Shown here: piece by piece, positions 13,256 through 37,682 of the stretch
How positions within the stretch are numbered: the stretch's first letter is position 1
How the letters are laid out: every line of letters begins with the position of its first letter
Source: a virus
Direction: 5' to 3' (one strand)
Length of the DNA stretch: 64,000 bases
IMG/VR virus record: IMGVR_UViG_3300005613_002762
Coordinates: 32,001-96,000 of that record
The notes under the pieces: generated by a model
Seen by the model: the letters and a program-made list of their open reading frames with translations, nothing else
Database searches by the model: none
What the model was told of the DNA's origin: nothing
Translations under genes and position numbers: made by a program

Positions 13256-13777
13256 TTATGTTAAACTTTGGGTTGGTGTTGGTGTGTTTGTTGGTGTCGG
13301 TGTAGGTGTTTGACTAAGTTCGGGGTAATTAGTTGGAGTTGGTGTTGGTGTTGGGAATGGAGTCACACAACAATTATAATCTAAGACATAACAATTATCA
13401 TATGGTAAACTATTAGATAAATAACTTTCAACCACATTAATATATAACTTTTCTCGAATTGGTAAGACAAGTGTCCCTGTTTCATTTATAAAAACAAATT
13501 GACCTTCATAACGACCTGGTTTACTTGTGTCTTGAGGTGTAAATCGATAGTAAACATAAAACTCAGGACTTGCGTTTGGATTCATTTCCATTTTCTCAAC
13601 AAAACTTGCTGCTTCGGAATTGATTTTTAAAACTCCCGTTTCTGAATCTATCATTGAAAAAAATATTGATGATGTCTCAATAAAACCCATCATAGATTGA
13701 TAATCAGTTATACCATCTTTTACAACTTGTAATTTTAATAATGGTAAACTTGAATTTTGACCGATTGTAAATTCCAT
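13256..13777 (-). CDS. Virion protein, BppU-N-like domain with Pro/Thr tail
   Basis: YYRFTPQDTSKPGRYEGQF resembles baseplate upper protein N-domains; ends in TPTP repeats; paralog of 13816..14856. Confidence 0.55.
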   Translation of the reverse strand: MEFTIGQNSSLPLLKLQVVKDGITDYQSMMGFIETSSIFFSMIDSETGVLKINSEAASFVEKMEMNPNASPEFYVYYRFTPQDTSKPGRYEGQFVFINETGTLVLPIREKLYINVVESYLSNSLPYDNCYVLDYNCCVTPFPTPTPTPTNYPELSQTPTPTPTNTPTPTQSLT

Positions 13778-13815
13778 CTATACTTTCTTTATAAATACCT
13801 TAGTTGTGATTTTAG

Positions 13816-14856
13816 TTAGGGACAAACACCACCAACACAATTGTCGTTTCCTCCTGTCACAGAAATATAATTATATGGTTGTGTAAAGGCGGCACAGAAA
13901 GTTTGAGATCCATTAAATGGTAAAGTTATTGCAACACTATTACCATTACAATTCACATATATCGAATTAAACACATTATTTTGTGTTTTAGTATACGTAA
14001 AACATTTACAAGGAAATGAAGTTCCACACTCATGGGAATAAATCACTTGACTATAATTACCAAACAATCCACTATACGCACCAACATACACTACTGTATT
14101 TGGTAAGTAAGGTAATCCATTTCTTTTTAAAACTTTAAACCAACCGCCGTTAGTTGCAAAAGAATATGTATTAAAACTTGGTGATGCCCAAAGAGTTTGA
14201 CCAATTGTTAACGCCGACATTACAGGTGTGTATGCGGTTGCATATTGAGCAGTTTGTGAACATGCGTTATTAACAGCACCCGACCCAAATGACACAACCC
14301 ACTCAGTATAACCTGTTGGTTCAGGACCTAAAGTTGTTGATGTTGTTGTTACGGGTATTGATGTGGTTGATGTTGTAGTTGGTGCTATGGTTGATGTGGT
14401 AGTTGTTGGTATTGGAGGAACTGGTGGTGGTATAGGTTGTGATTTACAACAAGGAAAATCTACAACATAACAACTTTGATATTCATAATCATTTATTATA
14501 AAACTATCCGTTACGTTTACAAATATGTTTTGATTTAATGGTAATGTTAAAATTCCTGTTTCATTTCTAAATAAAAATTGACCTTGATATCTACCAACAC
14601 TTTTTGTGTCTTTTGGTGTGAATTGATAATAAACATAGTATTCAGGTTCTAATGTTGGATCAATTTGTTCTTTTTTCATTACACCAGCAGGTCTTGTAGT
14701 AAATTTTGGAATACCTGTTTCAGTATCAACCATAGAAAAAAATATGTCGGTTTCTTCTAAAAACCGCATAGTTCTATCATAATCACTTCGTCCGTCTTTT
14801 ATGACGTTTATCTTTAATACGGGAAGAGTCGCACCTTTTTTAATGAAAAATTCCAT
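13816..14856 (-). CDS. Virion protein: BppU-N-like domain + Pro/Thr linker + Cys-containing C-domain
   Basis: N-domain paralogous to the 173-aa neighbour (YYQFTPKDTKSVGRYQGQF); PPPVPPIPTTTTST linker. Confidence 0.55.
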   Translation of the reverse strand: MEFFIKKGATLPVLKINVIKDGRSDYDRTMRFLEETDIFFSMVDTETGIPKFTTRPAGVMKKEQIDPTLEPEYYVYYQFTPKDTKSVGRYQGQFLFRNETGILTLPLNQNIFVNVTDSFIINDYEYQSCYVVDFPCCKSQPIPPPVPPIPTTTTSTIAPTTTSTTSIPVTTTSTTLGPEPTGYTEWVVSFGSGAVNNACSQTAQYATAYTPVMSALTIGQTLWASPSFNTYSFATNGGWFKVLKRNGLPYLPNTVVYVGAYSGLFGNYSQVIYSHECGTSFPCKCFTYTKTQNNVFNSIYVNCNGNSVAITLPFNGSQTFCAAFTQPYNYISVTGGNDNCVGGVCP

Positions 14857-14884
14857 TCAAGTTCTTTTTCAATAAATACTTGAA

Positions 14885-16552
14885 TTAAAATTCTTTTCTT
14901 AAACTACCCTCATAGAATTCGAACCTGTTGTGTTCTGTTGGTGTCATAAGAAGAACACCACTACTAATTCGACCTTTTATTGTTTCTTTATAACAATATG
15001 ACATTAAGGTCTGTTCATATGGATAGTCAAATTTAGTTTCGATATAACATTTGTAATTACCTTCTTTTGATAATATAATTGGCCAGTTAGATAAATATAC
15101 ATCACCTGTTGCGTATGGAATACCTTCATATGATTTTATATTTTTGAACTCTAAACATGGTGAATTTGGATCTTGACCCTGTTTTGGAAGTTCGGGATTC
15201 ATAGGCCAATGTTTTTTTCTAAACTCTTGATCCACATTATACCAAGACCATTGTTTTTCATGACTACCAAAAAACTCCGTAAAATTTAATTTAAGAAAAT
15301 CTAATTCTTCTTTTTTGAATATCTGTAAAACTTTTCTATATAGATTTTTAGTTTTTCGATTAAATCCGTTTTTACACACATCATCGATACCATTATAAAA
15401 AAACATATCATCTTCGAAGAAATAATAATAATCCATATCGGATTCGTTAAAATGTTCTGCAACAAAAACACGTCCGCCAGTTATTCCGATATTATCTTTT
15501 TTAATATGTTCGAACCCATATTGTTCACAAAGTTCCAAGTATCTTGGAGTTGTTGATAAATCCGTTGAGTTATTTAATAAGAATTTCTTTGTTTTAGAAA
15601 TAAAATCTGAATCATATTCTAACATGGAATTGATCAGTGTTTCAAATTGTTTTGGGCTATTGAATGAAATCACATATAGACCAACATCTCCTGACGAAAT
15701 CTTAACTATTTTTTTTGTTTTCCTTAAAGTTTTTAATTCAACGGAATCATTTTTAACATCTTCAAAAAATTTATACATAAGACCATTCGATTCAATTTCA
15801 ACGTAATCTATTATTGTCGGATTTTGATATAAAAGAATTGAAAATAAACTTTCTTCAGTTCCCATTAAACCTTTTTGTAATGTTGATTTAATTAACCCAT
15901 AATAAAGACCATTCATATGTCGAATAAGTTCTTTTGTTCCACCAAAGAATCCACCTCTACAAACTTTATCAACCCTTGTTTCAGTTATCTTATCCATTTG
16001 TTTAATATCAAATCCATGTATTTCACGATCCGCTTGGTATGGGAAACAAACAAATAAAAAGTTATCGGTTAATTTATCTATTTTTGGTAAAACATTGTCG
16101 TGAGTAAAATAACCCATGTGAACCGTATTTGCCAATCCCGCATCAATCCAATAAAGTTTTTCTGAATTAAATTTATCTAAAATAACCGCATCATGTAAAA
16201 GAAACATTTTTGACATAACCAAAGGGTTATACATTTCAAGTTTCGCTTGAGTAGAATCTTTTAACCATCCGGCTAAATTATACCATTTTGGATTGTTTCT
16301 AATCGTTTGTATTTGATAATAAAACTCACCATTTTTAAACCAATCTAAATCTCTTAATACAAATTGAGTGTTAGAGTTATTTCTTTTTGATGAAACAAAA
16401 TCTTGTAGTTCTTTGTCACCAAAAATTATCATATTACAATCAATTTGTAATAGTTGTTCAAACTTATTTAAATAATGATCAAATGATCGAGACCAACCCT
16501 CAGATAAGTTTCCTCGACCAATATCCCATAAACCAGTGACTAACGTAATCAT
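14885..16552 (-). CDS. HtrL/YibB-like glycosyltransferase fused to a second GT-A domain
   Basis: ITLVTGLWDIGR, YWIDAGL, GGFFGG (HtrL-like); C-half with FFEDDM DxD-like motif. Confidence 0.7.
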   Translation of the reverse strand: MITLVTGLWDIGRGNLSEGWSRSFDHYLNKFEQLLQIDCNMIIFGDKELQDFVSSKRNNSNTQFVLRDLDWFKNGEFYYQIQTIRNNPKWYNLAGWLKDSTQAKLEMYNPLVMSKMFLLHDAVILDKFNSEKLYWIDAGLANTVHMGYFTHDNVLPKIDKLTDNFLFVCFPYQADREIHGFDIKQMDKITETRVDKVCRGGFFGGTKELIRHMNGLYYGLIKSTLQKGLMGTEESLFSILLYQNPTIIDYVEIESNGLMYKFFEDVKNDSVELKTLRKTKKIVKISSGDVGLYVISFNSPKQFETLINSMLEYDSDFISKTKKFLLNNSTDLSTTPRYLELCEQYGFEHIKKDNIGITGGRVFVAEHFNESDMDYYYFFEDDMFFYNGIDDVCKNGFNRKTKNLYRKVLQIFKKEELDFLKLNFTEFFGSHEKQWSWYNVDQEFRKKHWPMNPELPKQGQDPNSPCLEFKNIKSYEGIPYATGDVYLSNWPIILSKEGNYKCYIETKFDYPYEQTLMSYCYKETIKGRISSGVLLMTPTEHNRFEFYEGSLRKEF

Positions 16553-16581
16553 AGTTAATTGTTAACAATTTTATTTTGAAA

Positions 16582-17463
16582 TTAAATACCGTTTAATTCC
16601 TCTAATATTTTATAAAAACTTTTTTCTGTCTTGGTTAATTCTTTTAAATCAACGCCAGGTATATTATCGTCTTCATGCCACCAAATATCAAAAAATAATG
16701 GACTAAACAAATCTTTATTGTTGTAATAAATTAAAGACATAATGTTCTCCTCAAGGTATAAAGTATTTTCATTTTCTAAAACCTCATCAATTTGGTTTAA
16801 CATCATTTTACAATAATCCATTACCAATTCTTTTTTACCACCAAAAAAACCACCAATTATGTGATGGTCAAAACAATACTTATCGTAATAGCTTTGAGGT
16901 AAAGTTTTTGACCAATGATTTCTTCTATTTTCTTTTGCACATAACACAATTTTATTATCTGAAGTTTTTATCAGATTATTTAAAAGATTATTATTAAATA
17001 ATTTAGATTCAAAATACTTTTCCCAATACCCCCTTGTTTGATCTAAAAGTCTTGGTGGAATTAAACCACTATGAGAAAGACCAGCATCAAACCAAAAGAT
17101 ATTTGTTGTTGTGTCGTCAATTTCGTTTAAACACCAATTAAATTTTGAATACTGAATTTCATAACATCTATCTTTAATCACATTTGTTTGTGTTGATTTA
17201 ATTTGTGAAATTCTATTGTGAAATTTATTATCACGTAAATTTGAAACTTTAAATGTAATTTGTGATTCTGAAAAATTATTTTCTTTATAAAAAAAGTTTT
17301 GAAGAATACCTAACTCTTCTTGACTTGTATAACACACAAATTGTGCATCGGTCATTTTTAATAAACTTTTAACCGAGTTTAAATAATGTCCTTGTCTACT
17401 ATCTCTTCCACCAAGATCGGTATTGAACAGGTTTGAATAAATTGCGGTAACAATTTTTATCAT
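16582..17463 (-). CDS. HtrL/YibB-like glycosyltransferase
   Basis: IVTAIY, SKFNW, FWFDAGL, IIGGFFGG, EENIM motifs parallel the neighbouring gene. Confidence 0.65.
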   Translation of the reverse strand: MIKIVTAIYSNLFNTDLGGRDSRQGHYLNSVKSLLKMTDAQFVCYTSQEELGILQNFFYKENNFSESQITFKVSNLRDNKFHNRISQIKSTQTNVIKDRCYEIQYSKFNWCLNEIDDTTTNIFWFDAGLSHSGLIPPRLLDQTRGYWEKYFESKLFNNNLLNNLIKTSDNKIVLCAKENRRNHWSKTLPQSYYDKYCFDHHIIGGFFGGKKELVMDYCKMMLNQIDEVLENENTLYLEENIMSLIYYNNKDLFSPLFFDIWWHEDDNIPGVDLKELTKTEKSFYKILEELNGI

Positions 17464-18704
17464 AAATTACCAACAATTCTATCACACCAATCTTTAGATG
17501 TCGAGTGAGGCCAAATAACCCAATACGACGGAATTTCTTTTGTGTGAAACTCTCTCCACACTTTACCAACACCACTTGGATCTGACTTTAATCTCATAAT
17601 CTCATTTGGATCGGCATCTTGTCTAAACAAAGTATTATTATCTTTATCGTGAAAAGCAACCACCCAAAAATCATAATCAGTTTCAGGAACTCGATTTAAA
17701 TCTAAATCAATACAATGTCTAAAAATTGTTGTAAAAGATTCTTTCCATTCTTCTTCAGTTTTAAACTCATATGTATTTGGTGGATATTTTTTATCTTTTG
17801 TTTCTTGTTGTATACCTCGAGTTTCGAATAATATTCCAGCATATTTTTCATAGTCACGAACCGTTCTTTTTGTTCCGAACCATTCAGAATAATCACCATC
17901 ATAAGTTTCACCATCAACACCAAGTAATTGTCTATTCTTTTTATGACATGCGGTATTTTTTAAATACCAATCCTTATCATCATCCCATTGCTTAACTCGA
18001 CCTTTTCTTGTGTATTCATGCCAAATTAAAACTTTATGTGGGTGAAACAAATCATAACCATGTGTATATGCTCTTACCGTAATTGAAATTTCTTCCCCAT
18101 GAAAATAAAATTCAGGATCGTGTTGAACTTCTTTTGAAAACTCACCCAAAGTAAAACAATAATGTGCCGAATAAAATCTTGCGGGAATTGGTTCGGTCAT
18201 TTCTTTCCATCCTGGTATAACTTCAGGTAAAAAGAAAACAACACCTTCGGGTGTAAATCGATCAAATGTCATACGCCAAGGTTCCGTAACTCTTCCTTCA
18301 GGATCATTTTCAGGATCAAATGAAGAAACATAACCTGTCAATAATGGTTTTTTATGACCTTTCTTTTGGAGTTGTTTAATCATTTTGATCATTTCTTTAT
18401 CCCAATTTTTTTCGAATCTCATATGAGAATCTATTTGAAGGGTATATTTTTCTCCATCATATTGTTGTTGTGTCAAATGTCTTGCCCAACACACACCTTT
18501 TGATTCCTTATAATCTATGTTAATAATTTTAAATCTTGGGTCATTTTCATACTCTGATAAATCATCAAAACCATCTTCAGGATGAAATTGTCTGGCAATT
18601 GATAAAACCAAATTTTCGGGGTTTTTTGCCATTTCCAACATGTTTTTAATTGTTGGGATAAGTTGGGGGTCTCGATAAGACGCTATTTGAACAAATATTT
18701 TCAT
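17460..18704 (-). CDS. GT60-family polypeptide alpha-GlcNAc transferase
   Basis: IFVQIASYRDP, SKGVCWAR, LQIDSHMRF (DSH metal motif), FHGEEI, THGYDLFHP are GT60 signatures. Confidence 0.85.
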   Translation of the reverse strand: MKIFVQIASYRDPQLIPTIKNMLEMAKNPENLVLSIARQFHPEDGFDDLSEYENDPRFKIINIDYKESKGVCWARHLTQQQYDGEKYTLQIDSHMRFEKNWDKEMIKMIKQLQKKGHKKPLLTGYVSSFDPENDPEGRVTEPWRMTFDRFTPEGVVFFLPEVIPGWKEMTEPIPARFYSAHYCFTLGEFSKEVQHDPEFYFHGEEISITVRAYTHGYDLFHPHKVLIWHEYTRKGRVKQWDDDKDWYLKNTACHKKNRQLLGVDGETYDGDYSEWFGTKRTVRDYEKYAGILFETRGIQQETKDKKYPPNTYEFKTEEEWKESFTTIFRHCIDLDLNRVPETDYDFWVVAFHDKDNNTLFRQDADPNEIMRLKSDPSGVGKVWREFHTKEIPSYWVIWPHSTSKDWCDRIVGNL

Positions 18705-18782
18705 AATGAAAAAATAAATAAATCAAGTAAAGTGTAAATTGTTTTGATCGATTTAAACACTATGATGATCCATAAATAAATG

Positions 18783-19721
18783 TCAACTTACAATTTCCAA
18801 AACTTTTAGATAAACTTGTAAAACTGATGGGTGACATTCAAATGATTTTTTATTTTCCAAACAATTAACAAGAGACGGAATACCTTGTATTGATCCCCAC
18901 TCTCTAACTCCATGTTTCATATCAGACGCACAATGTAATCCACACCCACCATTGACATAATGATATTTGTATTGTTGTGAACCATGTCTGTATGGTGATC
19001 TAAACTCAGGATTTATTGAACTTCCTAATTGTATAATTTCACAATCTGTTGTTCCTGCCAAATGTAAAAGACCTGAATCCATTGTTATAAAACAAGAACA
19101 ATTATTTATTAAATACCAAGTTTGATCAAGAGATGTTTGGTTCATTAAGTTATGTCCTAACTTTATTGGAAAATCAAAAACTGGTTTATCAACATTTGAC
19201 CCCCCTAACTCTGATGAATTCTTTCCAATTGAAATTACCGATATTCCTTTTTCATTTAATAGTTGTGTTAACATTTGCCAATTTTTTGCGGACCAAGTTC
19301 TTGAATTCCAATTTTGAACGGGATGTATTAAAACGTATTTATTAGGTAAATGTGGAAGTATCACATCTTCGTTTGGGATATAGTCCAAAGTCATTTCATC
19401 TTTGGTTAACATAAACCCAAGATTAATTGCGTGTAATTGTCTAATGTCCATCACATTATGTTTATTACAAACTCCATTGTCTTTATATGAAACATCAAAC
19501 GTGGAAAGTATCTGATAGTCAGATTTAATTTTATCTAGTAATTCGGAAGTATATTGAAAACTATCTTTTACGTATGGTAGATTTAAAAATATTTCAGAGT
19601 GGTGTGATATAACTGAAACTTGGTTATTATAAGTTTGACTTATTTTTTTAACAACGGGTGTTGCACATATTGTATCACCTAAAGCCCTACAACCTGTAAT
19701 ATCAATACAAATTTCTTTCAC
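18783..19721 (-). CDS. GT9 / heptosyltransferase-like glycosyltransferase
   Basis: ALGDTICATP, SRTWSAKNW, FITMDSGLLHLA; C-terminal Cys cluster CGLHC...C...FEC. Confidence 0.85.
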   Translation of the reverse strand: MKEICIDITGCRALGDTICATPVVKKISQTYNNQVSVISHHSEIFLNLPYVKDSFQYTSELLDKIKSDYQILSTFDVSYKDNGVCNKHNVMDIRQLHAINLGFMLTKDEMTLDYIPNEDVILPHLPNKYVLIHPVQNWNSRTWSAKNWQMLTQLLNEKGISVISIGKNSSELGGSNVDKPVFDFPIKLGHNLMNQTSLDQTWYLINNCSCFITMDSGLLHLAGTTDCEIIQLGSSINPEFRSPYRHGSQQYKYHYVNGGCGLHCASDMKHGVREWGSIQGIPSLVNCLENKKSFECHPSVLQVYLKVLEIVS

Positions 19722-19772
19722 GATACAATAATAACTTATTCACAAATAAATTGAATGAATTATTTTTCTTAT

Positions 19773-23977: not shown

Positions 23978-23978
23978 A

Positions 23979-24488: not shown

Positions 24489-24491
24489 ATC

Positions 24492-27710: not shown

Positions 27711-27725
27711 ATCATTAATAAATAT

Positions 27726-28628: not shown

Positions 28629-29827
28629 TGAAAAATTTAAAAATTGGAATTACATTAGGTTTACAATCAAACACAGAATCAATATGGACAAACGGAATGA
28701 AACAAAATGTTTTAATGTTTGTTCATTTATTAAAACAATCCAAAAACAATTATGAAGTTTTTATATTAAACACATTTGATGTAGATTTTTCAGAAAAAAG
28801 ACCTTCTTATTTGGATGGTATTGATATCCATAACTTTAAAGAAAAATTTATGGACATGGATCTTATCGTTATGATGGGAGCTCAAGTTTATGATGAAGAC
28901 ATTAAGAAATTTAAAGAAGATAAAAATAAAAGATTTATCGGTTATAAATGTGGAAACAATTATGTTATACACATGGAAAACGTAATGTTTAAAGAAAATA
29001 CCAAAAAATATTTTGAGTATGAAACAACGTTTGACGAATTATGGTATATTCCACAACAAGACGAAACAAACAAAGGATTCTTTTCAACATTATATAGAAC
29101 AAATGCATTTATTGTTCCATTCATTTGGCATGATAAATTTTTAAAAGAGGCCGTTATTGGTATTGAAAAAGGATTTAAAGATGGTCGTTATAAAAAAGGT
29201 TATAAATATAATCCCGAAAAAGAAAAAAAGGTTTTGGGTATTATGGAACCAAATATTAATATTGTTAAATATGGTTTAATCCCAACCATGATTGCCGAAG
29301 AATCTTTTAGAACTGAAACCGGAAAAAACCATATTGATAAGTTAATGATTACAAATGGTGAAAAATTAAAAACTAATCACGAGTTTTTATCTATTATTAA
29401 AACTTTTGATCTTTATAAAGATGGTAAAATAACTGCAGAGTCTCGTTATCAAACGGCATTTGTTTTAACTCAATATTTTGATGTTCTAATATCTCATCAG
29501 ATTCTAAATCCATTAAATTATCTGTATTTGGATGCTGCGTATTTAGGTTATCCTGTATTACATAATGCAACTCTATGTAAAGATTTAGGTTATTATTATG
29601 ATAATAGTGATACTAAACAAGGTGCCGAAATGTTAAATTATATTTTAACAGAACATGATAAAAATATTACAGAGTATCATGAAAAAAATAATAAAGTGTT
29701 AGAAAGATATTATGCCGATGATGAGACTTTAGTAGAAACTTATGACAAACTTATTTATAATTTATTTAATGGTGGAAATAAGGATTTGATTTATAACCCA
29801 AATACAAATAGATACGATAATCTATAA
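28628..29827 (+). CDS. DUF2827-family GT-B-fold putative glycosyltransferase
   Basis: SIWTNGMKQN, CGNNY, MEPNINIVK, SHQILNPLNYLYLDAAYLGYPVLHN motifs. Confidence 0.75.
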   Translation: MKNLKIGITLGLQSNTESIWTNGMKQNVLMFVHLLKQSKNNYEVFILNTFDVDFSEKRPSYLDGIDIHNFKEKFMDMDLIVMMGAQVYDEDIKKFKEDKNKRFIGYKCGNNYVIHMENVMFKENTKKYFEYETTFDELWYIPQQDETNKGFFSTLYRTNAFIVPFIWHDKFLKEAVIGIEKGFKDGRYKKGYKYNPEKEKKVLGIMEPNINIVKYGLIPTMIAEESFRTETGKNHIDKLMITNGEKLKTNHEFLSIIKTFDLYKDGKITAESRYQTAFVLTQYFDVLISHQILNPLNYLYLDAAYLGYPVLHNATLCKDLGYYYDNSDTKQGAEMLNYILTEHDKNITEYHEKNNKVLERYYADDETLVETYDKLIYNLFNGGNKDLIYNPNTNRYDNL

Positions 29828-29844
29828 CTTAACTTACTACTAAT

Positions 29845-29878
29845 AAAAAAGGGGTTCCGAAGAACCCCTTTTCTTTTT
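29845..29878. terminator. Bidirectional intrinsic terminator
   Basis: AAAAGGGGTTC-CGAA-GAACCCCTTTT between convergent genes; C(UUCG)G tetraloop and U6 tract on the minus strand. Confidence 0.9.
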
Positions 29879-29893
29879 GGTTAAAACCAAAGA

Positions 29894-32416
29894 TTAAGCG
29901 TAAACACCGTAAGCAGTTACTTTACCACCATCAGCTGGAGTATAAGTAAAGGTTACAGTTGCACCAGTCATGTTGTAATCTACACCAGCTTCTTGAAGAA
30001 GACCGTTATAGTAGATTGCTTCAGAGTTAGTTCTTACATCAGATGCCAAAGTGAATTCTTTGTTAGTTCCATTAACTAAACCGCTAACAGAAACTCTCTT
30101 GAAGTAAGTGTTCTCGAAATCATTTGTAATGTTTTCAAGTTCAGTTACAACTTCTGAGAAAGAGTCGATAGCTGTAAGATCTGTGTTTGAGATCAAGTTA
30201 GCAACTTCAGTAGACAATGCCTCTTCTAACGATTCTTCAGCGGCCTCAGCTCTTGAAATTTCAGAAGATAATTGTGACATTAATCCTTCCTCTACTTCAC
30301 CGATAAATACTTCAAGTGAGTTATCTTTAGCAAGTCTTGCAGACTCCTCATTAGAGATAGCACTATTAATAGAAGTTTTAGCGTCATTTAATGATGTTTC
30401 TAATGAACTATCACCAACAACTCTTGAAGAAGCTTCAGTAGAAATAGCGGCATTTGCATCAGTTCTGTTAGTTGCAATTACGCTCTCTAATGAACTATCA
30501 CCAACAACTCTTGAAGAAGCTTCAGCAGAGATAGCTGTGTTTGCGTCAGTTTTATTAGTAGCGATTACACTTGCTAATGAACCGTCAGCAGATTCCATAG
30601 CATCCTCAACCTCATCGATTGTTAAACCAATAGAAGTTACGGCAGACAATAATGCGTTATCGTTTTCTAAGTCAATAGCATTAACGAAAGAAACGATTTC
30701 GGCAAATTGATCTAAATCAACATCAGAACCATCAAGGATAGCATCGATACGTTCTTTTTCATCTTCGATTGCGTTAGCTAATGAAGTATCTGCCGATTGA
30801 CGGTCAGTAATTTCTGTGCTGATTTTTCCGTTAATAGACTCCTTAGCTTCATTAATAGAAGATGCCAATGAAGTGTCACCAGAAATACGGTTAGAAATTT
30901 CAACTGAAATTCTGTCGTCGATAGATTCATCTGCAGATGTGTGGATTGAGCAACACTCAGAGATTTCAATAGATAACTCATTATCTTTTGAGTTCATTGC
31001 AACCAAGTTAGAACTGATAACAGATTCTAATGAATCATCAGCATTGTTCATTGCAACCAAGTTAGAACTGATAACAGTTTCTAATGAATCATCAGCATTG
31101 TTCATTGCCACCAAGTTAGAACTAATAACAGTTTCTAATGAAGTGTCGGCAGTGTTCATTGCAGTCAAGTTAGCACCGATAACAGTTTCTAATGAAGTGT
31201 CCACGGCAAGACGTTCATCTTCTTCTCTAGATACGCGAGCGTCGATAGAAGCGTTAGCCGCGATGATTTCAGCGTCTACATAATCCTCCAAAGAGTTGTC
31301 TGCGGCCAAGCGAGTTGACTCTTCAGCAGTTAATCGAGTGTCAATTGAACCTTCAGCAGATACATGGTGAGCATGTTCTGTAGAGATTTCAATAGAAATC
31401 AATGTTGCCAATGAAGTGTCAGCAGTTGCACGAGCGGCCTCCTCAGTAGAAACACGAGAAGTTAAAGAAGTGTCAGCGGCTTCACGAGCAGCAACTTCAG
31501 TAGATACAGCAGATTCGCGGTTAACAACTTCAAGAGAAATGTCAGAAGACAATACTCCTTCAGCAGCAAGAGCACGAGTTTCTTCAGCGTCTACATCGGC
31601 AGCACGGTTAACGATTTCAGAAGAAAGGTTAGCGGCAATTGATGCCTCAGCGGCTGTTGCACGAGATACTTCAGCAGAAGTTGCGGTTGATGCGTTAGCA
31701 GCTAAAGTTGTGATTGCGTTGTTGATGTCACCATCAGCAGATTGGAATGCACCTACGATTTCAGTCAATGAATCAAGAGCGGCTGGATCTGTGTTAGAGA
31801 TCACGAAGTCAATCTTTGTGTTCAATGAAGTATCGGCAGCGGCACGGGCAGTTGCTTCGTCAGCTAAGTCACTTGCCAATGAACCTTCAGCTGCGACAGC
31901 ACGAGACTCTTCAGCGTCAACATCAGCAGTACGAGCAGTTACTTCAGCCGCCAATGCGTTTGCGATAGACGTTTCAGAAGATTGTGCACGAGACTCTTCA
32001 GCGGCTAAATCGTTAGTTAAAGATAACTCAGCAGCAAGTGCACGAGTTTCTTCAGCATCTACGTCAGCGATGCGATTTGCAACCTCAGTTGAAAGGTTAG
32101 TTGACAAAGTGTTGTCACCGGCGATACGAGCAGCCACTTCAGTAGAAACTGCCGCAGCACGATTAACAACTTCGCTTGACAAATTAAGAGCAACTGAATC
32201 ATCACCAACAACTCTTAATGAAGCTTCGGTAGAAACAGCAGTTGATCTATCAGCAACTTCTTGAGCGACGTTTGTAGACAACGTTCCTAACTCAGAGTCA
32301 ACGTTAGTTGAACCATAAGCGATGTCACCAGCAACGATACCCAATGGGGTTGTGATTGATGGACTGGTTAACACCAAGTCCGATTGTAAGTCTAAAACTA
32401 TTTTAGTAGTAGCCAT
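29894..32416 (-). CDS. Long coiled-coil fibre protein (840 aa) with C-terminal beta-sandwich domain
   Basis: Ala/Ser/Glu-rich E..R..AD/E repeats; three LD(S/Q)(L/F).E(I/V)V-type neck motifs; C-terminal NGTNKEFTL...IYYNGLLQ..GVDY domain. Confidence 0.8.
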   Translation of the reverse strand: MATTKIVLDLQSDLVLTSPSITTPLGIVAGDIAYGSTNVDSELGTLSTNVAQEVADRSTAVSTEASLRVVGDDSVALNLSSEVVNRAAAVSTEVAARIAGDNTLSTNLSTEVANRIADVDAEETRALAAELSLTNDLAAEESRAQSSETSIANALAAEVTARTADVDAEESRAVAAEGSLASDLADEATARAAADTSLNTKIDFVISNTDPAALDSLTEIVGAFQSADGDINNAITTLAANASTATSAEVSRATAAEASIAANLSSEIVNRAADVDAEETRALAAEGVLSSDISLEVVNRESAVSTEVAAREAADTSLTSRVSTEEAARATADTSLATLISIEISTEHAHHVSAEGSIDTRLTAEESTRLAADNSLEDYVDAEIIAANASIDARVSREEDERLAVDTSLETVIGANLTAMNTADTSLETVISSNLVAMNNADDSLETVISSNLVAMNNADDSLESVISSNLVAMNSKDNELSIEISECCSIHTSADESIDDRISVEISNRISGDTSLASSINEAKESINGKISTEITDRQSADTSLANAIEDEKERIDAILDGSDVDLDQFAEIVSFVNAIDLENDNALLSAVTSIGLTIDEVEDAMESADGSLASVIATNKTDANTAISAEASSRVVGDSSLESVIATNRTDANAAISTEASSRVVGDSSLETSLNDAKTSINSAISNEESARLAKDNSLEVFIGEVEEGLMSQLSSEISRAEAAEESLEEALSTEVANLISNTDLTAIDSFSEVVTELENITNDFENTYFKRVSVSGLVNGTNKEFTLASDVRTNSEAIYYNGLLQEAGVDYNMTGATVTFTYTPADGGKVTAYGVYA
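30399..30525 (-). repeat. 87-bp-period (29-aa) coding duplication
   Basis: Identical 40-mer tctaatgaactatcaccaacaactcttgaagaagcttcag at 30399 and 30486. Confidence 0.85.
30992..31201 (-). repeat. 54-bp (18-aa) coding tandem repeat, about 4 copies
   Basis: Units start at 30992, 31046, 31100, 31154; peptide D(T/D)SLE(T/S)VISSNLVAMNNA. Confidence 0.9.
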
Positions 32417-32610: not shown

Positions 32611-32645
32611 ATAAATATCTCGTAAATTTGAAAAAGACAAACTTT

Positions 32646-32879: not shown

Positions 32880-32946
32880 TTTCTTTTTTTTCTTTATATA
32901 AATATGTTTAGTTTTTAAGTTATTTAGGTATTATGTTAAATTATTT

Positions 32947-33732
32947 TTAATAAAATCTATACGAACACGTTATTTTACTTGAGGATGGTGGTGAAATACT
33001 AAATGTTATTGTTTTTCCGTTAATAACATAATCATTATTTTCACCCTGATCTTGTAAAAGACCGTTTAGATATATATGTTCACTACCATTTTTTGGTAAT
33101 TCAGTTAATTCAAATACTTTATTTATCCCATTAATTTCACCAACAGGATATTCGTGATCAATAAAATTAATTTCACTATAAGTTCTATAAGAACAAAGTA
33201 ATTTACTTCCAATTTTTGGTGGATTGTTAAACGTAATTGTTTTTCCACTTATTATATAATCAAGATTAGACCCTCTATCTTGTAAGAGTCCATTATAATA
33301 AATGTGTTCTGAATTTAATTCTGGTGTAAAACGAAGTTGGAATTCTTTATTTACACTATCGATAGAACCCGAAATTAATTCACGATCAATAAATGTTGAT
33401 GAATTAACACCAGGAACTACTAAATTATTCGGTAAATTTTCAAGAACTTCTAATTGTGTGGAACTTAAAAAAAAGATCTCTTCCCAATCACTTAATTCGA
33501 AAGACCAAAAGATATTTTTAAGTTTGAAAAATCGAGAACCTCCGTCGACTCCGACAATCATACCAGGTCTTCGTCTGTCGTAGGGTATTAAATTTAAATC
33601 CGATTCTTCGTCTACATTACGTAATCCATCGATCCCATATAAAGGATCAATAACTGCATAAGTATCTAATGTGTCCATCGGGGAGATGAAGCCCATAATC
33701 CCCACCCCACCGATTTTACTAAAATCGGCCAT
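32947..33732 (-). CDS. Virion protein with two copies of the NGLLQ beta-sandwich domain
   Basis: Two repeats of G.I..(V/I)NK.F.L...SEHIY.NGLLQD.G...DY.I.GKTITF...P; N-domain IPYDRRRPGMIVGV. Confidence 0.7.
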   Translation of the reverse strand: MADFSKIGGVGIMGFISPMDTLDTYAVIDPLYGIDGLRNVDEESDLNLIPYDRRRPGMIVGVDGGSRFFKLKNIFWSFELSDWEEIFFLSSTQLEVLENLPNNLVVPGVNSSTFIDRELISGSIDSVNKEFQLRFTPELNSEHIYYNGLLQDRGSNLDYIISGKTITFNNPPKIGSKLLCSYRTYSEINFIDHEYPVGEINGINKVFELTELPKNGSEHIYLNGLLQDQGENNDYVINGKTITFSISPPSSSKITCSYRFY

Positions 33733-33758
33733 TTAAATTTCGATATACATATATAATA

Positions 33759-35315
33759 TTATTCACATAACCACACGTCAACTTTCGCAGAAGTCGATAC
33801 ATATGATCTATATATTGAATAAATAGTCGAATTACCTAAATTGTCAATTATATTTATGTCAGGTTTTGTTGTTATTGGAATAACATTACCATTACAACCC
33901 CAATTACTGTTTCTAAATATAGATGGTTGATTACTTGTGGATGGAATTAAAATATAAAAATAACCCGGCCCTGAAGGAATTTCCAAATATAAATTAGTTG
34001 TTTGTGAGGTATCAATTGTCGACAACAACAACTCATCTCCTGAATTAAAGTTTGAATTTACTGATTTTCCAAAATAAATTTTTGGAATAGTCGTTGGTGT
34101 TGATGTAGGTGTTGGTGTTGGGGTCGGTGTTTGAGTAATTGTGGTAGTTGGTGTTGGGGTCGGTGTTTCACTGATTGTTGGTGTCGGAGTTGGGGTTTCA
34201 GTTGATGTTGGTGTTGGGGTATTAGTCGGAGTTGATGTTAGTGTATTAGTTGGTGTTGGTGTAGGTGTTGCCGTTAAAGTATTAGTAGGTGTAACCGTAG
34301 GTGTTGTTGTTGGGGTATTTGTGGGTGTATTTGTAGGTGTTGTTGTCGGAGTATTTGTTGGTGTAACCGTAGGTGTTGGTGTATTTGTTGACGTTGGTGT
34401 TGGTGAAGCCCCTAAACTTGGTGTGACAGTAGGTGTTGGTGTATTTGTTGGTGTTGAAGTTGGCGTGTTTGTTGGAGTATTTGTTGGTGTATTTGTTGGT
34501 GTTGAAGTTGGCGTGTTTGTTGGAGTATTAGTCGGTGTATTTGTTGGGTCTGTAGTTTTAGTTGGTGTCGGAGTTGGTGTGGTTTGTTTTTGTGTCGAAA
34601 TTTTAAAATCAGGAATAATGTTTGAACCTAAAATTTTACTATTTTCTAGTATAACAACATCCTTTAATGAGTCAAAATCCATGTCAAGTCTTGTCTCAAA
34701 TATACCGTTCATGGTTCCTGCGTCAATTAAAATTTCTTTTGGGACAACAATTCTTTCATTTGTTTTCGTTGTTAATATCGCATCAAAGGAAATATATGTG
34801 TTAGTTGTTAGTGGTCTATTATAGGATATTGTTGATTTTAAAATTACAGATCCAGGCATTATCTCCAACATAATTATAACCTCAAATGGTGGTAACGGGG
34901 TAACACAAATATCCCAAGTTGGTGTCGGAGTTGGTGTGACACTAATTGTTGGTGTAGGTGTTGGTGTCTGAGTTGAAGTCGGTGTTGGACTCGGAACTTT
35001 ACAAGGATCAAATGTTGGAGTCGGTGTAACAGTTGAAGTAGGTGTAGGTGTAGGTGTTCTTGTCGGAGTAACTGTTGGTGTAGGTGTCGGTGTTGGTCTA
35101 ACAACATTTAAAAAATAAGGACAATTTGATGAAACAGGTTTAATCGTATATGTTCCGTATATTTCTCTTGGTGGATATAATAAATTAGGTTCAAATAAAA
35201 ATGGTAATGTTATTTCGTCAAAATTTAAAACAACATCATCGTTATCTGGTTTGAATAAGACTTCTGCCAATTCACCATCATAAAAAACACTATTAATTAA
35301 TATATTCTGACTCAT
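33759..35315 (-). CDS. Mucin-like Pro/Thr-rich putative virion protein (518 aa)
   Basis: Three globular segments separated by TPTPTVTP and TPTNTPT tracts. Confidence 0.75.
34085..34585 (-). repeat. Low-complexity (T/N/S/V/P)TPT coding repeat
   Basis: About 165 aa of 2- and 4-residue Pro/Thr periodicity; gttggt-type repeats on the + strand. Confidence 0.9.
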
Positions 35316-37682
35316 CTATTCATTAATTATTGTATATGTAAAATCATTAGGAAGACAAGACGCCAAATCACAATTTGGACAATCGGGATCGAACATGTAG
35401 TAAGTATCTCTTAATAATTTGAAATTATGTTTCACTTCAGGTGAAGATAGTGGTTCTGTATAAAATCTAAGTTGTTGAATAGCTCCGTCAAAAGTTCCTG
35501 CAAAGTTTTCTTCTATTAGAATATGTGTTTTAAGTTTGTTTAATGTGGTTGCACTTAAAATGTTTTCAGGGAAACATTCCGGATCTTGAAGGTAATCGTC
35601 ACTCTTAAGATGATATTTTCCTGAAAAACTTAAAACATTATTTGGGTTTGAAACCGTAAATGCTGGTGTCGAATTTTTATCTACGATTATACTTCCTGTC
35701 GTATTTGTAAGACCAGTTAAAACGGCAGGATCATTATTACAATCGTTATATACTATATCAGTGACTGATGTCCCTGCAGTATAGTTCCAAATTTTACAGA
35801 AATTTAAAGTTAAATTTTCGTGAAGACCTTGAGTTCCACCACCCCAAGATATATTAAAAGGAACACCAAGTTGTCTTTCCTTATCGGTGTCTAATGCTCT
35901 TGGTATAACTTCTTCAAAATTTTCTATTGTATAAAATATTCGACCATTTATATAAATTTTTAATCGACCCATTCTAAACTTGGTATCGTCTAACCATCTT
36001 TGATTTAATTGGACGATCTCTATTTCGCCAGGAACTTCATAACCATTCGTGTATGGTGGAGCAATTAACGCTTGAGCATTGTTCGCTAAACTTTGTAATA
36101 ACTCAACTCTTGTTATATCATCTAAACCACCAAACCATTTTAGATCGCAATAGTCTAAATACGTATATCGTTCCCAAACAACATTAAGTAAAAACCAACG
36201 CTCAACTCCTAACCATGCAGGATTAACTTCTAAACAGTAAGGATATATTGGTGGAGTGCAAATATCAACAATCGTATAACCAGTGACATATGTCTGACCC
36301 GTTACACAAGAACCTGTTGTTTCACAATCACCTGTGATTTTAATTGCTCGTATACCGATTCCAGGATTTTGTGGATCACCACATAATCTAAATGAAATGT
36401 TGTTTGATAACGCATCAAATTTTGGATCTTTTTCACAAGTGTCTTCCACAGATGAAAAAGTTAATGACGGTGTTGTTGGAGGACATCCACATACATTACA
36501 ACCACAATTAGGACAAGACGAACAACATCCTGCCGTTGGGCTACATTCGATTATTCTTGGATATGTATCACAAGGTGGTGTTGATGTTGGGGTTGGAGTT
36601 GGTGTCGGTGTTGGGATATTAATATCAGAACAATCATGATTAAAACACATCCACCCACAAACTTCACATGGTGGTTTATCACAACCACAACCACAAGTTA
36701 ATTTTTTTTGATCGTCACCATGACATAAATCACAACCATAATTTACGTGAGGATCGTAAACACCACCTTTTGGTCTTGGTGGGTAAACGTATATACATCG
36801 ACTATTCTTAATTGAGTAATCACAACAAGCACAAGTTTCTTCTTTTGTTAATCCTGATGTAACTCTTGTATATCCTGTATCACATTTAGGTGATCCATCA
36901 GCATGGTGATAAAATTTATTTTCAGCTCTTGCCCCCATATAAAAAAATGTATTTTTATTGTTGGGGTATATTTGATTTAAAGTCGTATAACCTGGTGGTG
37001 GAGAAAATTCATCAACAAATCTTGGTTTTAATAACATTTCAACAGACCAACCTTTATTCATTCTTTCAGGTAAAATATCATAATCATATCCAAACAACTT
37101 ATAAAACCCTTGATAAAACCCACCATACAACTCAACGTATCTACCAAAAATAGGACTAACCTTTGATACCATTTGATATGTTGTATATTGAGATATTCCT
37201 GAAAATTTGTTATTGTCGGGAACATTTGTTGTGGGTTGAATAAATTTCATTCTTCTATCGTAATAGAACCTTTTGAATTTTTCACTATCGTCGAATAGTC
37301 CATTTGTGAATACTAAACTATCACCTTTAATTTTTGTCGTTAAACCATTATCAATACCTGTTAAACCAATATCACATGTTGTATTACTAGAAAAACAAAG
37401 TAAATTAAGATCTTTTGGTTGATAAAAATTTTCAGAGATAATAACATTGTTTGGATTATAGGATCCATATGTTAAAGTTAAATTTTGTGTTGTAAGAGGA
37501 CTATTTAAGTTGAGTGATAATGGTAGTCTTTCACCATTATCAATTCCTATTAGAAATGGTGAAAACACAACTTCTTGATTAAAATCAACCTCATCAGAAG
37601 CCAACGACATATCTTGCCCGTCATAAATGACTTGCATTTTTAATTTCTGATAATTATATTGATTTATATTTTGGTAAGCCAT
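35316..37682 (-). CDS. Virion protein with LamG/ConA-like motifs interrupted by Cys-rich and Pro/Thr inserts (788 aa)
   Basis: WSVEMLLKP, RLKIYINGR, FDGAIQQLRFYTEPLS (LamG-like); CGCGC, CCSSCPNCGCNVCGC. Confidence 0.6.
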   Translation of the reverse strand: MAYQNINQYNYQKLKMQVIYDGQDMSLASDEVDFNQEVVFSPFLIGIDNGERLPLSLNLNSPLTTQNLTLTYGSYNPNNVIISENFYQPKDLNLLCFSSNTTCDIGLTGIDNGLTTKIKGDSLVFTNGLFDDSEKFKRFYYDRRMKFIQPTTNVPDNNKFSGISQYTTYQMVSKVSPIFGRYVELYGGFYQGFYKLFGYDYDILPERMNKGWSVEMLLKPRFVDEFSPPPGYTTLNQIYPNNKNTFFYMGARAENKFYHHADGSPKCDTGYTRVTSGLTKEETCACCDYSIKNSRCIYVYPPRPKGGVYDPHVNYGCDLCHGDDQKKLTCGCGCDKPPCEVCGWMCFNHDCSDINIPTPTPTPTPTSTPPCDTYPRIIECSPTAGCCSSCPNCGCNVCGCPPTTPSLTFSSVEDTCEKDPKFDALSNNISFRLCGDPQNPGIGIRAIKITGDCETTGSCVTGQTYVTGYTIVDICTPPIYPYCLEVNPAWLGVERWFLLNVVWERYTYLDYCDLKWFGGLDDITRVELLQSLANNAQALIAPPYTNGYEVPGEIEIVQLNQRWLDDTKFRMGRLKIYINGRIFYTIENFEEVIPRALDTDKERQLGVPFNISWGGGTQGLHENLTLNFCKIWNYTAGTSVTDIVYNDCNNDPAVLTGLTNTTGSIIVDKNSTPAFTVSNPNNVLSFSGKYHLKSDDYLQDPECFPENILSATTLNKLKTHILIEENFAGTFDGAIQQLRFYTEPLSSPEVKHNFKLLRDTYYMFDPDCPNCDLASCLPNDFTYTIINE

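Follow-up and report, generated by a model that had tools for sequence, protein, structure and literature searches.

Layout of the locus

The 64,000-nucleotide window analysed here belongs to the genome of a T4-type jumbo phage. It was taken from a 149-kb record that covers about half a genome (51% complete) and carries MCP, portal, TerL and baseplate wedge genes; the capsid is of the T4 type. The stretch from 13256 to 37682 had been described in an initial annotation as six glycosyltransferase genes interleaved with structural genes. That observation was confirmed, with corrections, and its gene calls and coordinates stand. All six glycosyltransferase genes are real, five being recognised by Pfam and the sixth, a 293-aa HtrL paralogue, by BLASTP. 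The structural genes, all six of which had been credited with long Ser/Thr-rich tracts, are of three kinds. The proteins of 173, 346, 518 and 788 aa do carry Pro/Thr tracts, but the 1072-aa protein is a proline-free collagen-like fibre and the 840-aa protein an Ala/Ser/Glu-rich coiled-coil fibre, so these two had been mis-described. No signal peptides or membrane segments were predicted for the enzymes and fibre proteins of the stretch.

GT60, the HtrL enzymes and the Pro/Thr-tract proteins

Six genes on the minus strand form a run in the order GT9, GT60, HtrL paralogue, HtrL555, PT346 and PT173, and PolB follows 106 nt on. The gaps between them (78, -4, 29, 28 and 38 nt) bear out the claim that the four enzyme genes are co-oriented with, and lead into, two Pro/Thr genes. 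The first is a GT9-like glycosyltransferase (18783–19721; Pfam GT9, E 1e-15) that scored below the cut-off of every NCBIfam heptosyltransferase model. The second (17460–18704) is a soluble GT60 glycosyltransferase (PF11397, E 2.6e-72, 244.7 bits, cut-off 21), a family represented by 78 viral loci and more than 7,000 protein clusters.

The single-domain HtrL paralogue (16582–17463) gave no match in the Pfam search. It aligned by BLASTP with residues 1–281 of HtrL555 (E 1e-9) and has the motifs W-x-D-A-G-L and G-G-F-F-G-G in common with the N-terminal half of that protein. HtrL555 itself (14885–16552, 555 aa) matches Pfam HtrL_YibB in its N-domain, and an E-D-D motif at 380–382 in its C-domain is invariant in the alignment columns. 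The predicted model of HtrL555 (pLDDT 90.3) has a fold of two GT-A domains, with LARGE1, LH3, the chondroitin polymerase K4CP, Mimivirus R699, COLGALT1 and PmHS2 as top Foldseek matches (E 4e-11 to 1e-7). Glycosyltransferase activity of the HtrL proteins, and of DUF2827 (see below), is putative.

PT173 (13256–13777, minus strand) consists of a BppU-N/Ig-like N-domain of ~135 aa, with a Cys-Cys motif at its end, and a 35-aa Pro/Thr tail. Its paralogue PT346 (13816–14856, minus; 48% identity in alignment) has the same N-domain and, after a Pro/Thr linker of 46 aa, a C-domain rich in Cys. The PT346 N-domain model (pLDDT 77) was most similar to the BppU-type baseplate N-domains of phages 80alpha, TP901-1 and NF5 (Z 7.2–8.2), and BFVD returned BppU and tail-fibre proteins. 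PT346 is thus a candidate baseplate-anchored appendage and a candidate GT60 acceptor.

At the other end of the stretch, also on the minus strand, lie two putative virion proteins. PT518 (33759–35315) has two Pro/Thr tracts, 68 and 178 aa long, between a small N-domain and a beta-rich C-domain. PT788 (35316–37682) is Cys-rich with just 29 aa of Pro/Thr, as a linker; its C-terminal half is probably ConA/LamG-like, and its atlas look-alikes are phage Laminin_G_3 clusters, which is a lead only. In relatives PT788 stands first in the run of Pro/Thr proteins. A tract scan placed four of the six Pro/Thr-tract proteins of the 149-kb record within the 24-kb stretch, more than expected by chance. Elsewhere in the window, the 3' part of a gene for a 1115-aa protein (3–2567, minus) encodes a 44-aa Pro/Thr/Ser tract; this candidate further acceptor has tract-bearing orthologues at the equivalent place in relatives selected by PolB.

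The pairing of GT60 and HtrL with Pro/Thr-tract proteins recurs in both phages and bacteria. In 13 of 38 GT60 lineages a co-oriented Pro/Thr-tract ORF lies immediately upstream of GT60, and in 18/32 a Pro/Thr-tract ORF immediately follows HtrL555, against a background of 69/619 ORFs. The upstream ORFs include PT518 homologues as well as non-homologous proteins, many having no similarity to the window's Pro/Thr proteins (tblastn, E 1e-5). Of 32 relatives selected by PolB, 29 have HtrL555 and 31 a PT346-type gene, placed directly downstream of HtrL555. At 52 bacterial loci, 11 of the 104 positions -1 and -2 hold a long Pro/Thr-tract ORF, compared with 1 of 299 positions at least five ORFs away.

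These results suggest that GT60, a candidate initiating enzyme, probably initiates O-glycosylation at Thr within the Pro/Thr tracts of proteins that carry a BppU-like anchoring N-domain. The two HtrL enzymes would probably then extend this sugar, HtrL555 resembling bifunctional chain-building enzymes. The proteins would be modified in the host cytoplasm, while the fibres assemble or beforehand. An intergenic motif found at many genes is no marker of a late class, and the run leads into PolB, so co-expression with structural genes is only presumed.

The tracts, collagen repeats and coiled coils could instead be plain, unmodified linkers or stalks, placed beside the enzymes by shuffling in a hypervariable island, with the enzymes acting on small molecules or on other proteins of phage or host. 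The co-occurrence of GT60 with Pro/Thr proteins, which had been proposed as a check, is indeed enriched in relatives and bacteria, but six distant lineages keep GT60/HtrL with no Pro/Thr tract nearby, and a tract also occurs far from the enzymes, in a 259-aa protein between portal and TerL. Against this, Pro/Thr ORFs lie at both flanks of the GT60-HtrL unit and their enrichment recurs in bacteria of other phyla. Unmodified stalks are therefore considered improbable, a judgement to which the collagen-like genes (below) also contribute.

The proximity of the GT60-HtrL unit to PolB, in this lineage and in the Xanthomonas phage XacN1, might suggest that the enzymes glycosylate phage DNA, giving hypermodified bases that evade restriction; the glycosyltransferases that decorate phage DNA are diverse, according to work cited in PMC12619734. 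The record contains no thymidylate-synthase-family or ThyX gene, which at 51% completeness is weak evidence. Five near-complete relatives (93–100%) each have one such gene, with ordinary bacterial thymidylate synthases as best matches and no hydroxymethylase among the 60 matches listed. GT60, the bacterial autotransporter heptosyltransferases (BAHT) and DUF2827 are not known to be DNA-glycosylating families. A role in DNA modification is thus very hard to credit.

The TibC-like fusion and the collagen-like fibre

Divergent from the GT9-like gene, in an arrangement kept in relatives, is a plus-strand gene (19755–22688) for a 977-aa fusion of a GT4 domain (~200–360), a TibC/Aah-type BAHT domain (~410–750) and an FkbM methyltransferase (~790–925). 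Pfam matched it to GT4, GT9 and FkbM. The middle domain matched TibC (PDB 4rap, E 1.5e-64) and passed NCBIfam TIGR04414 with 283 bits, above the curated cut-off of 200 by which it can be assigned, from its sequence, to the TibC/Aah-type protein O-heptosyltransferase family. The catalytic Asp110 of TibC is retained, as are three of its four sugar-binding residues (Thr226, Lys230 and Trp305) and all four iron-finger cysteines (PMC4358343). Arg286 is replaced by Val and Pro300 by Gly. As Arg286 is changed and no heptose pathway (no GmhA, no kinase) was found in the 51% complete record, the donor may not be heptose.

Facing the fusion gene is an operon on the minus strand that encodes a 1072-aa collagen-like fibre (24492–27710) and, at its 3' end, three small paralogues of 171, 173 and 169 aa (22689–24488, from their translations). 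The fibre has ~190 Gly-X-Y triplets, of the proline-free form Gly-(Thr/Ser)-(Ser/Asn/Asp), and a 450-aa C-terminal domain. The triplets are a collagen repeat rather than a mucin tract (Pfam Collagen, E 3.8e-83), and the fibre matched PHROG tail-fibre families to E 8e-74. The small paralogues form a phage-only family that accompanies both the fusion and the collagen gene in four lineages. As had been noted, both long fibre operons end convergently against a glycosyltransferase gene, here at 22688/22689 and for the coiled-coil fibre at 29827/29894.

A co-occurrence of TibC-like with collagen-like genes was found. A collagen-like ORF (up to 566 triplets) lies within the next two ORFs in 16 of 27 TibC lineages and within the previous two in none of the 27, and the background is under 1% (4/1191 and 9/1170 ORFs). 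Many phages without such enzymes also have collagen-like tail fibres (PHROG families), as expected for unmodified stalks, but the strict placement of the collagen-like genes downstream of the TibC-like gene argues against that explanation. The fusion and its divergent GT9 partner thus probably glycosylate and methylate the collagen-like fibre.

DUF2827 and the coiled-coil fibre

The third pairing begins with a plus-strand gene for a 185-aa J-domain-like protein (28071–28628; a weak DnaJ match below cut-off), which overlaps start-to-stop with the gene for DUF2827, a putative fibre glycosyltransferase (28625–29827, plus; Pfam 325.9 bits, E 3.6e-97). A strong bidirectional intrinsic-terminator-like hairpin (29847–29872; an 11-bp stem between A and T runs) separates DUF2827 from the gene for the 840-aa coiled-coil type fibre (29894–32416, minus). 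This protein has Ala/Ser/Glu-rich helical repeats (A16 S14 E10) and a C-terminal fibre-tip module; its translation contains no Ser/Thr tract, and it is not mucin-like. The C-terminal 65 aa are homologous (E 3e-17) to the repeats of a 261-aa protein (32947–33732, minus) with two copies of the module and matches to PHROG virion structural and tail-fibre families (E 1.6e-8 to 9e-6).

Of 49 loci examined, most have the J-domain gene ahead of DUF2827, with the unit facing a long fibre gene; in ~22 this gene is of the 840-aa type and convergent. Bacterial DUF2827 genes adjoin those for trimeric autotransporter adhesins (bioRxiv 10.64898/2026.01.22.700529). This suggests that DUF2827, made together with the J-domain protein, probably glycosylates the coiled-coil fibre.

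The second sugar cluster and the likely target

A second cluster of glycosyltransferases and nucleotide-sugar enzymes (41266–55925, plus strand) is present as originally noted: one GT4-like, three GT2, two GT25 and one GT11 gene, with an NDP-sugar dehydrogenase, an SDR epimerase/reductase, a nucleotidyltransferase and FkbM. Scattered among these are genes for dUTPase, NAD synthase and PhoH and a PolB-exo-like gene. The proposal that it supplies fibre glycosylation was not supported, its two best candidates for ADP-heptose enzymes falling far below curated cut-offs and GmhA and the kinase being absent from the record.

Sugar-gene clusters in cyanophages and other jumbo phages have been given a host-envelope role, and a review of jumbo phages reads them as capsule/LPS modification systems (PMC7824862). 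The enzymes here might similarly remodel LPS, capsule or surface glycoproteins during infection, for example against superinfection, the fibres merely sharing a variable region with them. HtrL_YibB, GT9, GT25 and GT2 are families characteristic of LPS/LOS loci (PMC4172580), and the second cluster sits among nucleotide-metabolism genes and PhoH, away from the fibre genes. On the other hand, the model that the TibC-type domain passes is an equivalog for protein O-glycosyltransferases, both GT60 and DUF2827 have links to protein acceptors, and neither a flippase nor a polymerase nor a lipid-carrier transferase turned up within the window. Moreover, every enzyme type keeps to its own type of fibre in different lineages and in bacteria as well, which a shared variable region does not predict. 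Envelope remodelling is therefore rather unlikely.

The reading favoured here, and held to be probable from gene content and order, is that the virion fibres are glycosylated by the phage's own adjoining enzymes. Three enzyme/fibre pairings are co-located inside one 24-kb stretch and relatives repeat all three adjacencies; most likely, then, the phage itself coats its fibres with sugar. Most of the phage loci belong to one lineage, and conservation of order thus partly reflects shared ancestry. The stretch is best explained as the variable appendage region of an abundant, uncultured T4-type jumbo phage with three enzyme and fibre cassettes. The earlier interpretation is partly borne out, as regards enzymes with known or proposed protein substrates beside fibre genes in recurring pairings; a complete pathway, supply from the second cluster, a glycocalyx covering the entire virion instead of modified fibres, and the functions proposed for it are hypothetical. 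The glycans would most likely serve fibre folding or stability and surface properties; we infer that the adjoining proteins are the acceptors, and likewise which sugars they receive.

Comparison with known systems

Several known systems resemble parts of this arrangement. The GT60 family PF11397 includes the polypeptide alpha-GlcNAc-transferases of protists (Dictyostelium; mucin initiation in Trypanosoma cruzi; Skp1 Gnt1). The phage enzyme is a strong member of it and has Thr/Pro-rich tracts encoded next door, in phages as in bacteria. Unlike the protist enzymes it is prokaryotic-viral, soluble, without a membrane anchor and always accompanied by HtrL-type GT-A partners. HtrL555 has the build of the two-GT-A enzymes LARGE1, K4CP, PmHS2, LH3 and R699, but sequence identity is only 8–11% and the orientation of the domains keeps TM-scores low; any polymerase activity is conjecture.

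An experimental precedent comes from a cultured phage with the GT60, HtrL and GT9 enzymes, Xanthomonas jumbo phage XacN1 (AP018399), which has GT60 (46% identity), full-length HtrL555 (40%), an HtrL paralogue and GT9 adjoining baseplate genes and PolB. Its virions contain at least two Schiff-positive bands, without assignment to proteins or to these enzymes (PMC5852040). XacN1 differs from the window's phage in an extra carbamoyltransferase and in having no Pro/Thr tract within 9 kb of GT60.

In TibC-TibA and Aah-AIDA-I of E. coli (PDB 4rap/4rb4; PMC4358343), as here, a soluble cytoplasmic BAHT enzyme of the same family model, with the same kept residues, is encoded beside a long, repetitive, Ser/Thr-rich fibrous protein. 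The phage has no autotransporter, the neighbour being a collagen-like triple helix rather than a beta-helix, and its BAHT domain is fused to GT4 and FkbM and carries the two substitutions, so that donor specificity may differ. The bacterial DUF2827 loci likewise place a cytoplasmic DUF2827, sometimes in tandem copies, beside a gene for a long coiled-coil fibrous protein; the phage gene differs in being co-transcribed with a J-domain protein and in facing a fibre of the virion type that bears a phage tip module. In mycobacteriophages, glycosyltransferases encoded beside structural genes have been proposed, and in some cases shown, to add O-linked glycans to virion proteins (Freeman et al. 2023, PMC10527164, as cited in PMC12619734). 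In those phages the enzyme families and host phylum differ, and the sugars go to extensions at the C-termini of capsid and tail-tube subunits; in the present phage the candidate acceptors are fibre or appendage proteins whose repeats are Pro/Thr-rich, collagen-like or of the coiled-coil kind.

Results and discussion

The window covers positions 32001-96000 of one IMG/VR virus record (149,190 bp, GC 31.6%, CheckV completeness 51%), which comes from a tailed phage encoding a T4-type major capsid protein, a portal, a large terminase and a baseplate wedge. The closest cultured capsids were those of Microcystis phage Mel-JY01, the Flavobacterium 'immuto' phages and Rhodothermus RM378 (about 37-45% identity), and near-complete relatives have genomes of 274-304 kb. 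PolB relatives in IMG/VR numbered 597 or more and GT60 protein clusters from metagenomes over 7,000, and the stretch is present in runs from 12 public studies, so that the lineage is a very common one. It is also uncultured, and a nucleotide search of deposited phages with the 24-kb stretch of glycosyltransferase and fibre genes gave no match. Large Bacteroidota phages with four core glycosyltransferase groups have been described in the 'moraphage' paper (PMC12619734). GT60 was also seen, at 61-64% identity, in contigs filed as Saprospiraceae or other MAGs (L305-L312, e.g. CALJOK010000014.1, 230 kb, GC 0.34), most of which carry HtrL555, the 555-aa HtrL_YibB protein, alongside it. The GC of these contigs is mostly phage-like (0.33-0.39, one at 0.50); here phage sequence has probably been binned together with bacterial contigs, and at most the contigs hint at the host. 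A complete Fe/Mn-type SOD (both Pfam domains) is embedded in a 722-aa protein (6684-8852) whose N- and C-terminal regions have no assignment and which adjoins PolB in relatives too.

All six glycosyltransferase genes claimed in the initial annotation are present as described. The middle domain of the 977-aa GT4-BAHT-FkbM fusion (19755..22688, plus strand) scored 283.3 bits against NCBIfam TIGR04414 (BAHT/TibC-Aah; curated equivalog cut-off 200) and matched TibC (PDB 4rap) with an E-value of 1.5e-64. The residues named for TibC are the catalytic base Asp110 and the sugar-binding Thr226, Lys230, Arg286 and Trp305 (PMC4358343). When the alignment was mapped by hand, Asp110, Thr226, Lys230 and Trp305 were found to be kept in the fusion, Arg286 was replaced by Val and Pro300 by Gly; the four iron-finger cysteines of TibC (339, 342, 358 and 370) all align with Cys. 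Judged by its family-model score and PDB match, the middle domain is a genuine TibC/Aah-type enzyme. No autotransporter was found in the window, and the neighbour of the fusion is a collagen-like fibre.

GT60 (17460..18704, minus strand) scored 244.7 bits against Pfam PF11397 (gathering score 21) with most of the domain covered; this domain was carried by all 120 closest GT60 homologue clusters listed, and a sequence search of the PDB gave no match. The activity associated with GT60 is the transfer of GlcNAc to peptide-bound Thr/Ser or Hyp; for the phage protein this activity is putative, the evidence being the enrichment of Pro/Thr-tract ORFs beside the gene in phages and bacteria. The DUF2827 gene (28625..29827, plus strand) matched Pfam PF10933 over its full length (profile positions 1-362, 325.9 bits).

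HtrL555 (14885..16552, minus strand) scored 62.5 bits against HtrL_YibB (Pfam PF09612, cut-off 24.1), a family without known activity (PMC4172580). Its 293-aa paralogue (16582..17463, minus strand) had no Pfam hit and was related by BLASTP to the HtrL domain of the 555-aa protein (E 1e-9). The model of HtrL555 (pLDDT 90.3) contains two GT-A domains, with E-D-D invariant in the second, and its best structural matches were the bifunctional two-GT-A enzymes LARGE1, LH3, K4CP, Mimivirus R699, COLGALT1 and PmHS2. As modelled, HtrL555 is a two-GT-A protein with a polymerase-like fold. A single, marginal PDB sequence match of HtrL555 to dUTPase (E 0.88) was put down to chance.

The gene order and both convergent fibre/glycosyltransferase junctions were as first read. 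The description of the neighbouring genes as Ser/Thr-rich structural genes had to be corrected. Four of them encode Pro/Thr-tract proteins, named by their length in residues: PT173, PT346 (13816..14856, minus strand), PT518 (33759..35315, minus strand) and PT788, in which the tract is only 29 aa long. The other two are fibres of different kinds. The 1072-aa protein (24492..27710, minus strand) is a collagen-like fibre; direct reading showed it to be proline-free with about 190 Gly-X-Y triplets, and it scored 273.6 bits against Pfam PF01391 (collagen triple-helix repeat) with uninterrupted Gly-X-Y periodicity. The 840-aa protein (29894..32416, minus strand) is an Ala/Ser/Glu-rich fibre of the coiled-coil type and shares a C-terminal module (E 3e-17) with a 261-aa protein (32947..33732, minus strand); the latter and the collagen-like protein matched PHROG tail-fibre/virion families. 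The collagen repeat (25900-27500) appeared in many length variants in contigs from public runs (skips, back-steps and a 27-nt insertion at 25908). The likely reason is either strain-to-strain variation in triplet number or poor assembly of the repeat.

Structure modelling gave an Ig-like sandwich for the N-domain conserved between PT346 and PT173; its best structural matches were BppU-type N-domains of phage baseplates, at Z 7.2-8.2, a range in which fold likeness alone is weak evidence. PT518 and PT788 are only putative virion proteins; for PT788, a ConA/LamG-like C-terminal half is no more than a lead, and its sequence had no match in the PDB. Even with E-values up to 10 allowed, the 293-, 346-, 518- and 788-aa proteins had no Pfam match. 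A tract scan of the 149-kb record found six Pro/Thr/Ser-tract proteins, and the capsid protein is absent from the six. A 259-aa protein with an 80-aa Pro/Thr tract is encoded between the portal and large-terminase genes, outside the window (L003:8704-9483, genome 104704-105483); it may serve as an acceptor in the head, at a distance from the enzymes. All the enzymes and fibre proteins lack a signal peptide or membrane segment, which would fit cytoplasmic modification before assembly.

The pairing of GT60 and HtrL555 with Pro/Thr-tract proteins was analysed in 78 GT60-selected viral loci, which gave 38 lineages when collapsed at 90% identity, the only correction for kinship in the pairing counts. 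The order in these loci is Pro/Thr-tract ORFs, GT60, a variable insert of 0-6 kb, HtrL555, a PT346-type gene and PolB. Against a background of 69/619 ORFs, a co-oriented Pro/Thr-tract ORF lay directly upstream of GT60 in 13 of the 38 lineages and a Pro/Thr-tract ORF directly followed HtrL555 in 18 of 32. Many of the upstream ORFs are large, the longest having 1618 aa and an 845-aa tract. Many have no similarity to the Pro/Thr proteins of the window detectable by tblastn at E 1e-5, perhaps because the gene in this place has been exchanged repeatedly. Of 32 unbiased PolB-selected loci with at least 8 kb upstream, 29 carried HtrL555, 31 the PT346-type gene and 22 GT60; in two apparent exceptions (L141 and L165) GT60 and HtrL555 are located elsewhere on the contig. 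The GT60-HtrL unit is near-universal in the lineage. In this phage about 15 kb with the other two cassettes is inserted between PT518 and GT60.

The same pairing was seen in bacteria. In 52 bacterial loci (GT60 identity at most 57%), Pro/Thr tracts of at least 40 aa were present in ORFs at positions -1 and -2 in 11/104 cases, compared with 1/299 at five or more ORFs away, and HtrL555 homologues lie beside GT60 in about half of the loci.

Among viral loci with a TibC-like domain the best 80 were used; they collapsed to 32 lineages, 27 of which had at least 2 kb downstream. A collagen-like ORF was found within the next two ORFs of the TibC-like gene in 16 of these 27 and within the previous two in none, compared with background frequencies of 4/1191 in GT60-selected and 9/1170 in PolB-selected loci. 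These ORFs contain runs of 12 to 566 triplets and are Gly/Thr/Ser/Asn-rich and Pro-poor. In three further lineages (L221, L227 and L257) other parts of a collagen operon occupy the downstream position, and the divergent GT9 partner of the TibC-like gene (here 18783..19721, minus strand) is conserved in relatives as well. In Mel-JY01 (PP395634) a TibC-like/FkbM gene lies between two regions coding for Gly-Thr-Ser repeats, a case that is tentative because the opposite strand is annotated there. The annotated minus-strand genes (L085:1-3052 and 9152-9658) would encode Pro-Leu-Val-Pro-Glu-Val-Pro repeats, and on the plus strand an open frame of 1016 aa specifies a collagen-like Gly-Thr-Ser protein that continues into a C-domain of fibre type. 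The wrong strand was probably annotated.

A J-domain-like gene and DUF2827, in one or two copies, form a unit in 49 viral loci and usually face a long fibre gene, which belongs to the 840-aa Ala/Ser/Glu type in some 22 of the 49 and is another long Ser/Thr/Gly/Leu-rich ORF in most others. DUF2827 is convergent with the long fibre gene in this window and in most of the 49 loci. Bacterial DUF2827 genes, often in tandem, adjoin trimeric autotransporter adhesins, and their products are cytoplasmic proteins with a glycosyltransferase-like fold, for which adhesin glycosylation has been proposed (bioRxiv 10.64898/2026.01.22.700529).

Most phage loci share ancestry, which leaves some room for chance co-location in a variable island; this explanation is weakened by the positional specificity of the pairings and by the presence of the signal in bacteria too. 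Glycosylation of phage DNA by these enzymes is unlikely. The hydroxymethyl-pyrimidine route was looked at and no thymidylate-synthase-family dCMP/dUMP hydroxymethylase was found in the record (51% complete); five near-complete relatives have one gene of that family each, which looks like an ordinary thymidylate synthase, and the 60 matches listed for these genes include no hydroxymethylase.

It is conceivable, if rather unlikely, that this one phage has three substrate-dedicated protein O-glycosylation systems, in which a GT60 initiator and the two-GT-A polymerase-like HtrL would furnish Pro/Thr stalks with long repeating sugar chains, so that the phage would make mucin- or proteoglycan-like appendages, and the collagen-like fibre would need TibC-type Thr/Ser glycosylation to fold without proline. 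For all three pairings the donor sugars, acceptor residues and biological role are inferred.

The sugar-gene families of the second cluster (41266-55925) were confirmed and no links between this cluster and the fibres were found. For these genes remodelling of the host envelope is plausible: phage sugar clusters are usually read in this way (PMC7824862) and the cluster sits among nucleotide-metabolism genes. Such remodelling does not predict that each enzyme family should follow its own fibre type. A 148-aa nucleotidyltransferase was closest to RfaE domain II (74.6 bits, cut-off 181.5) and a 345-aa SDR to GDP-fucose synthase or heptose epimerase, both proteins scoring far below cut-off. As these candidates score so low and neither GmhA (isomerase) nor the PfkB-type kinase of the ADP-heptose pathway was found in the record (51% complete), a heptose pathway is not established. 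Two genes (45841-46467 and 49273-50205) belong to the GT25 family, which includes the animal collagen hydroxylysine galactosyltransferases; a link to the collagen-like fibre is doubtful since its repeats have no lysine. The upstream flank of the cluster carries a NUMOD3-type homing-endonuclease-like gene (40434-41282) and a small WYL-domain gene (39373-39753).

Scans for sigma-70 promoters and terminators did no better than shuffles, one terminator excepted. Intergenic regions of the whole record are enriched in the motif (A/G)TATTTAT(A/T), which precedes about 60 start codons, mostly at a distance of 11-45 nt (e.g. 13798-13806, 14879-14887, 18721-18729 and 27725-27733). It is probably a general promoter element, presumably akin to the Bacteroidota -7 box. 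As it precedes genes of all functional kinds (e.g. portal, TerL, PT173, PT346, GT60, collagen gene and SNF2), it cannot put the glycosyltransferase genes in the late class. Short near-identical metatranscriptome contigs from two studies contain pieces of PT173, PT346, HtrL555, the HtrL paralogue, GT60, the fusion and the collagen gene; they are no more than a hint of expression, as DNA carry-over is possible and the contigs carry no levels or strand.

Should these abundant aquatic jumbo phages use three enzyme families to sugar-coat their fibres, protein glycosylation would be a common and modular component both of the way phages recognise hosts and of the surface chemistry of their particles. 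HtrL_YibB and DUF2827 would gain their first functions, TibC-type enzymes would extend beyond autotransporters, and the phages would be a source of soluble enzymes to glycosylate Pro/Thr, collagen-like and coiled-coil scaffolds.

Comparison with known systems

To our knowledge, only some mycobacteriophages have been proven to glycosylate their virions with enzymes that they encode themselves. In this nearest proven system both enzymes and acceptors differ from those of the window: the glycans are on C-terminal extensions of capsid or tail-tube subunits, whereas the candidate acceptors here are fibre or appendage proteins, the capsid protein had no Pro/Thr/Ser tract in the scan and no tail-tube gene was identified in the record. 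TibC and Aah use ADP-heptose to modify an autotransporter adhesin passenger; the window has a collagen-like fibre neighbour and no autotransporter.

In the literature searched, no description was found of GT60, TibC-type or DUF2827 enzymes paired with phage fibres, of GT60 in phages, or of collagen-like genes with a heptosyltransferase in phages. The presence of three enzyme-fibre cassettes together in one 24-kb stretch is new.

The Xanthomonas jumbo phage XacN1, like the window, encodes GT60 (46% identity), a full-length HtrL555 homologue (40%), an HtrL paralogue and a GT9. These genes adjoin baseplate wedge genes, a 3313-aa protein and PolB; unlike in the window, no Pro/Thr tract lies within 9 kb. 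A 765-aa carbamoyltransferase, ORF333 (L084:10409-12706), is encoded between the GT60 and HtrL genes, which suggests that the glycan is O-carbamoylated in that phage. XacN1 virions show at least two Schiff-positive bands, not assigned to proteins, which were proposed by the authors to be made by the phage glycosyltransferases (PMC5852040). Also new are the predicted two-GT-A polymerase-like fold of HtrL555, the near-universality of the GT60-HtrL unit in this lineage and its presence in a phage whose virions stain for glycoprotein. With XacN1 available in culture and its virion proteomics publicly deposited as PXD008065, the idea is already open to testing.
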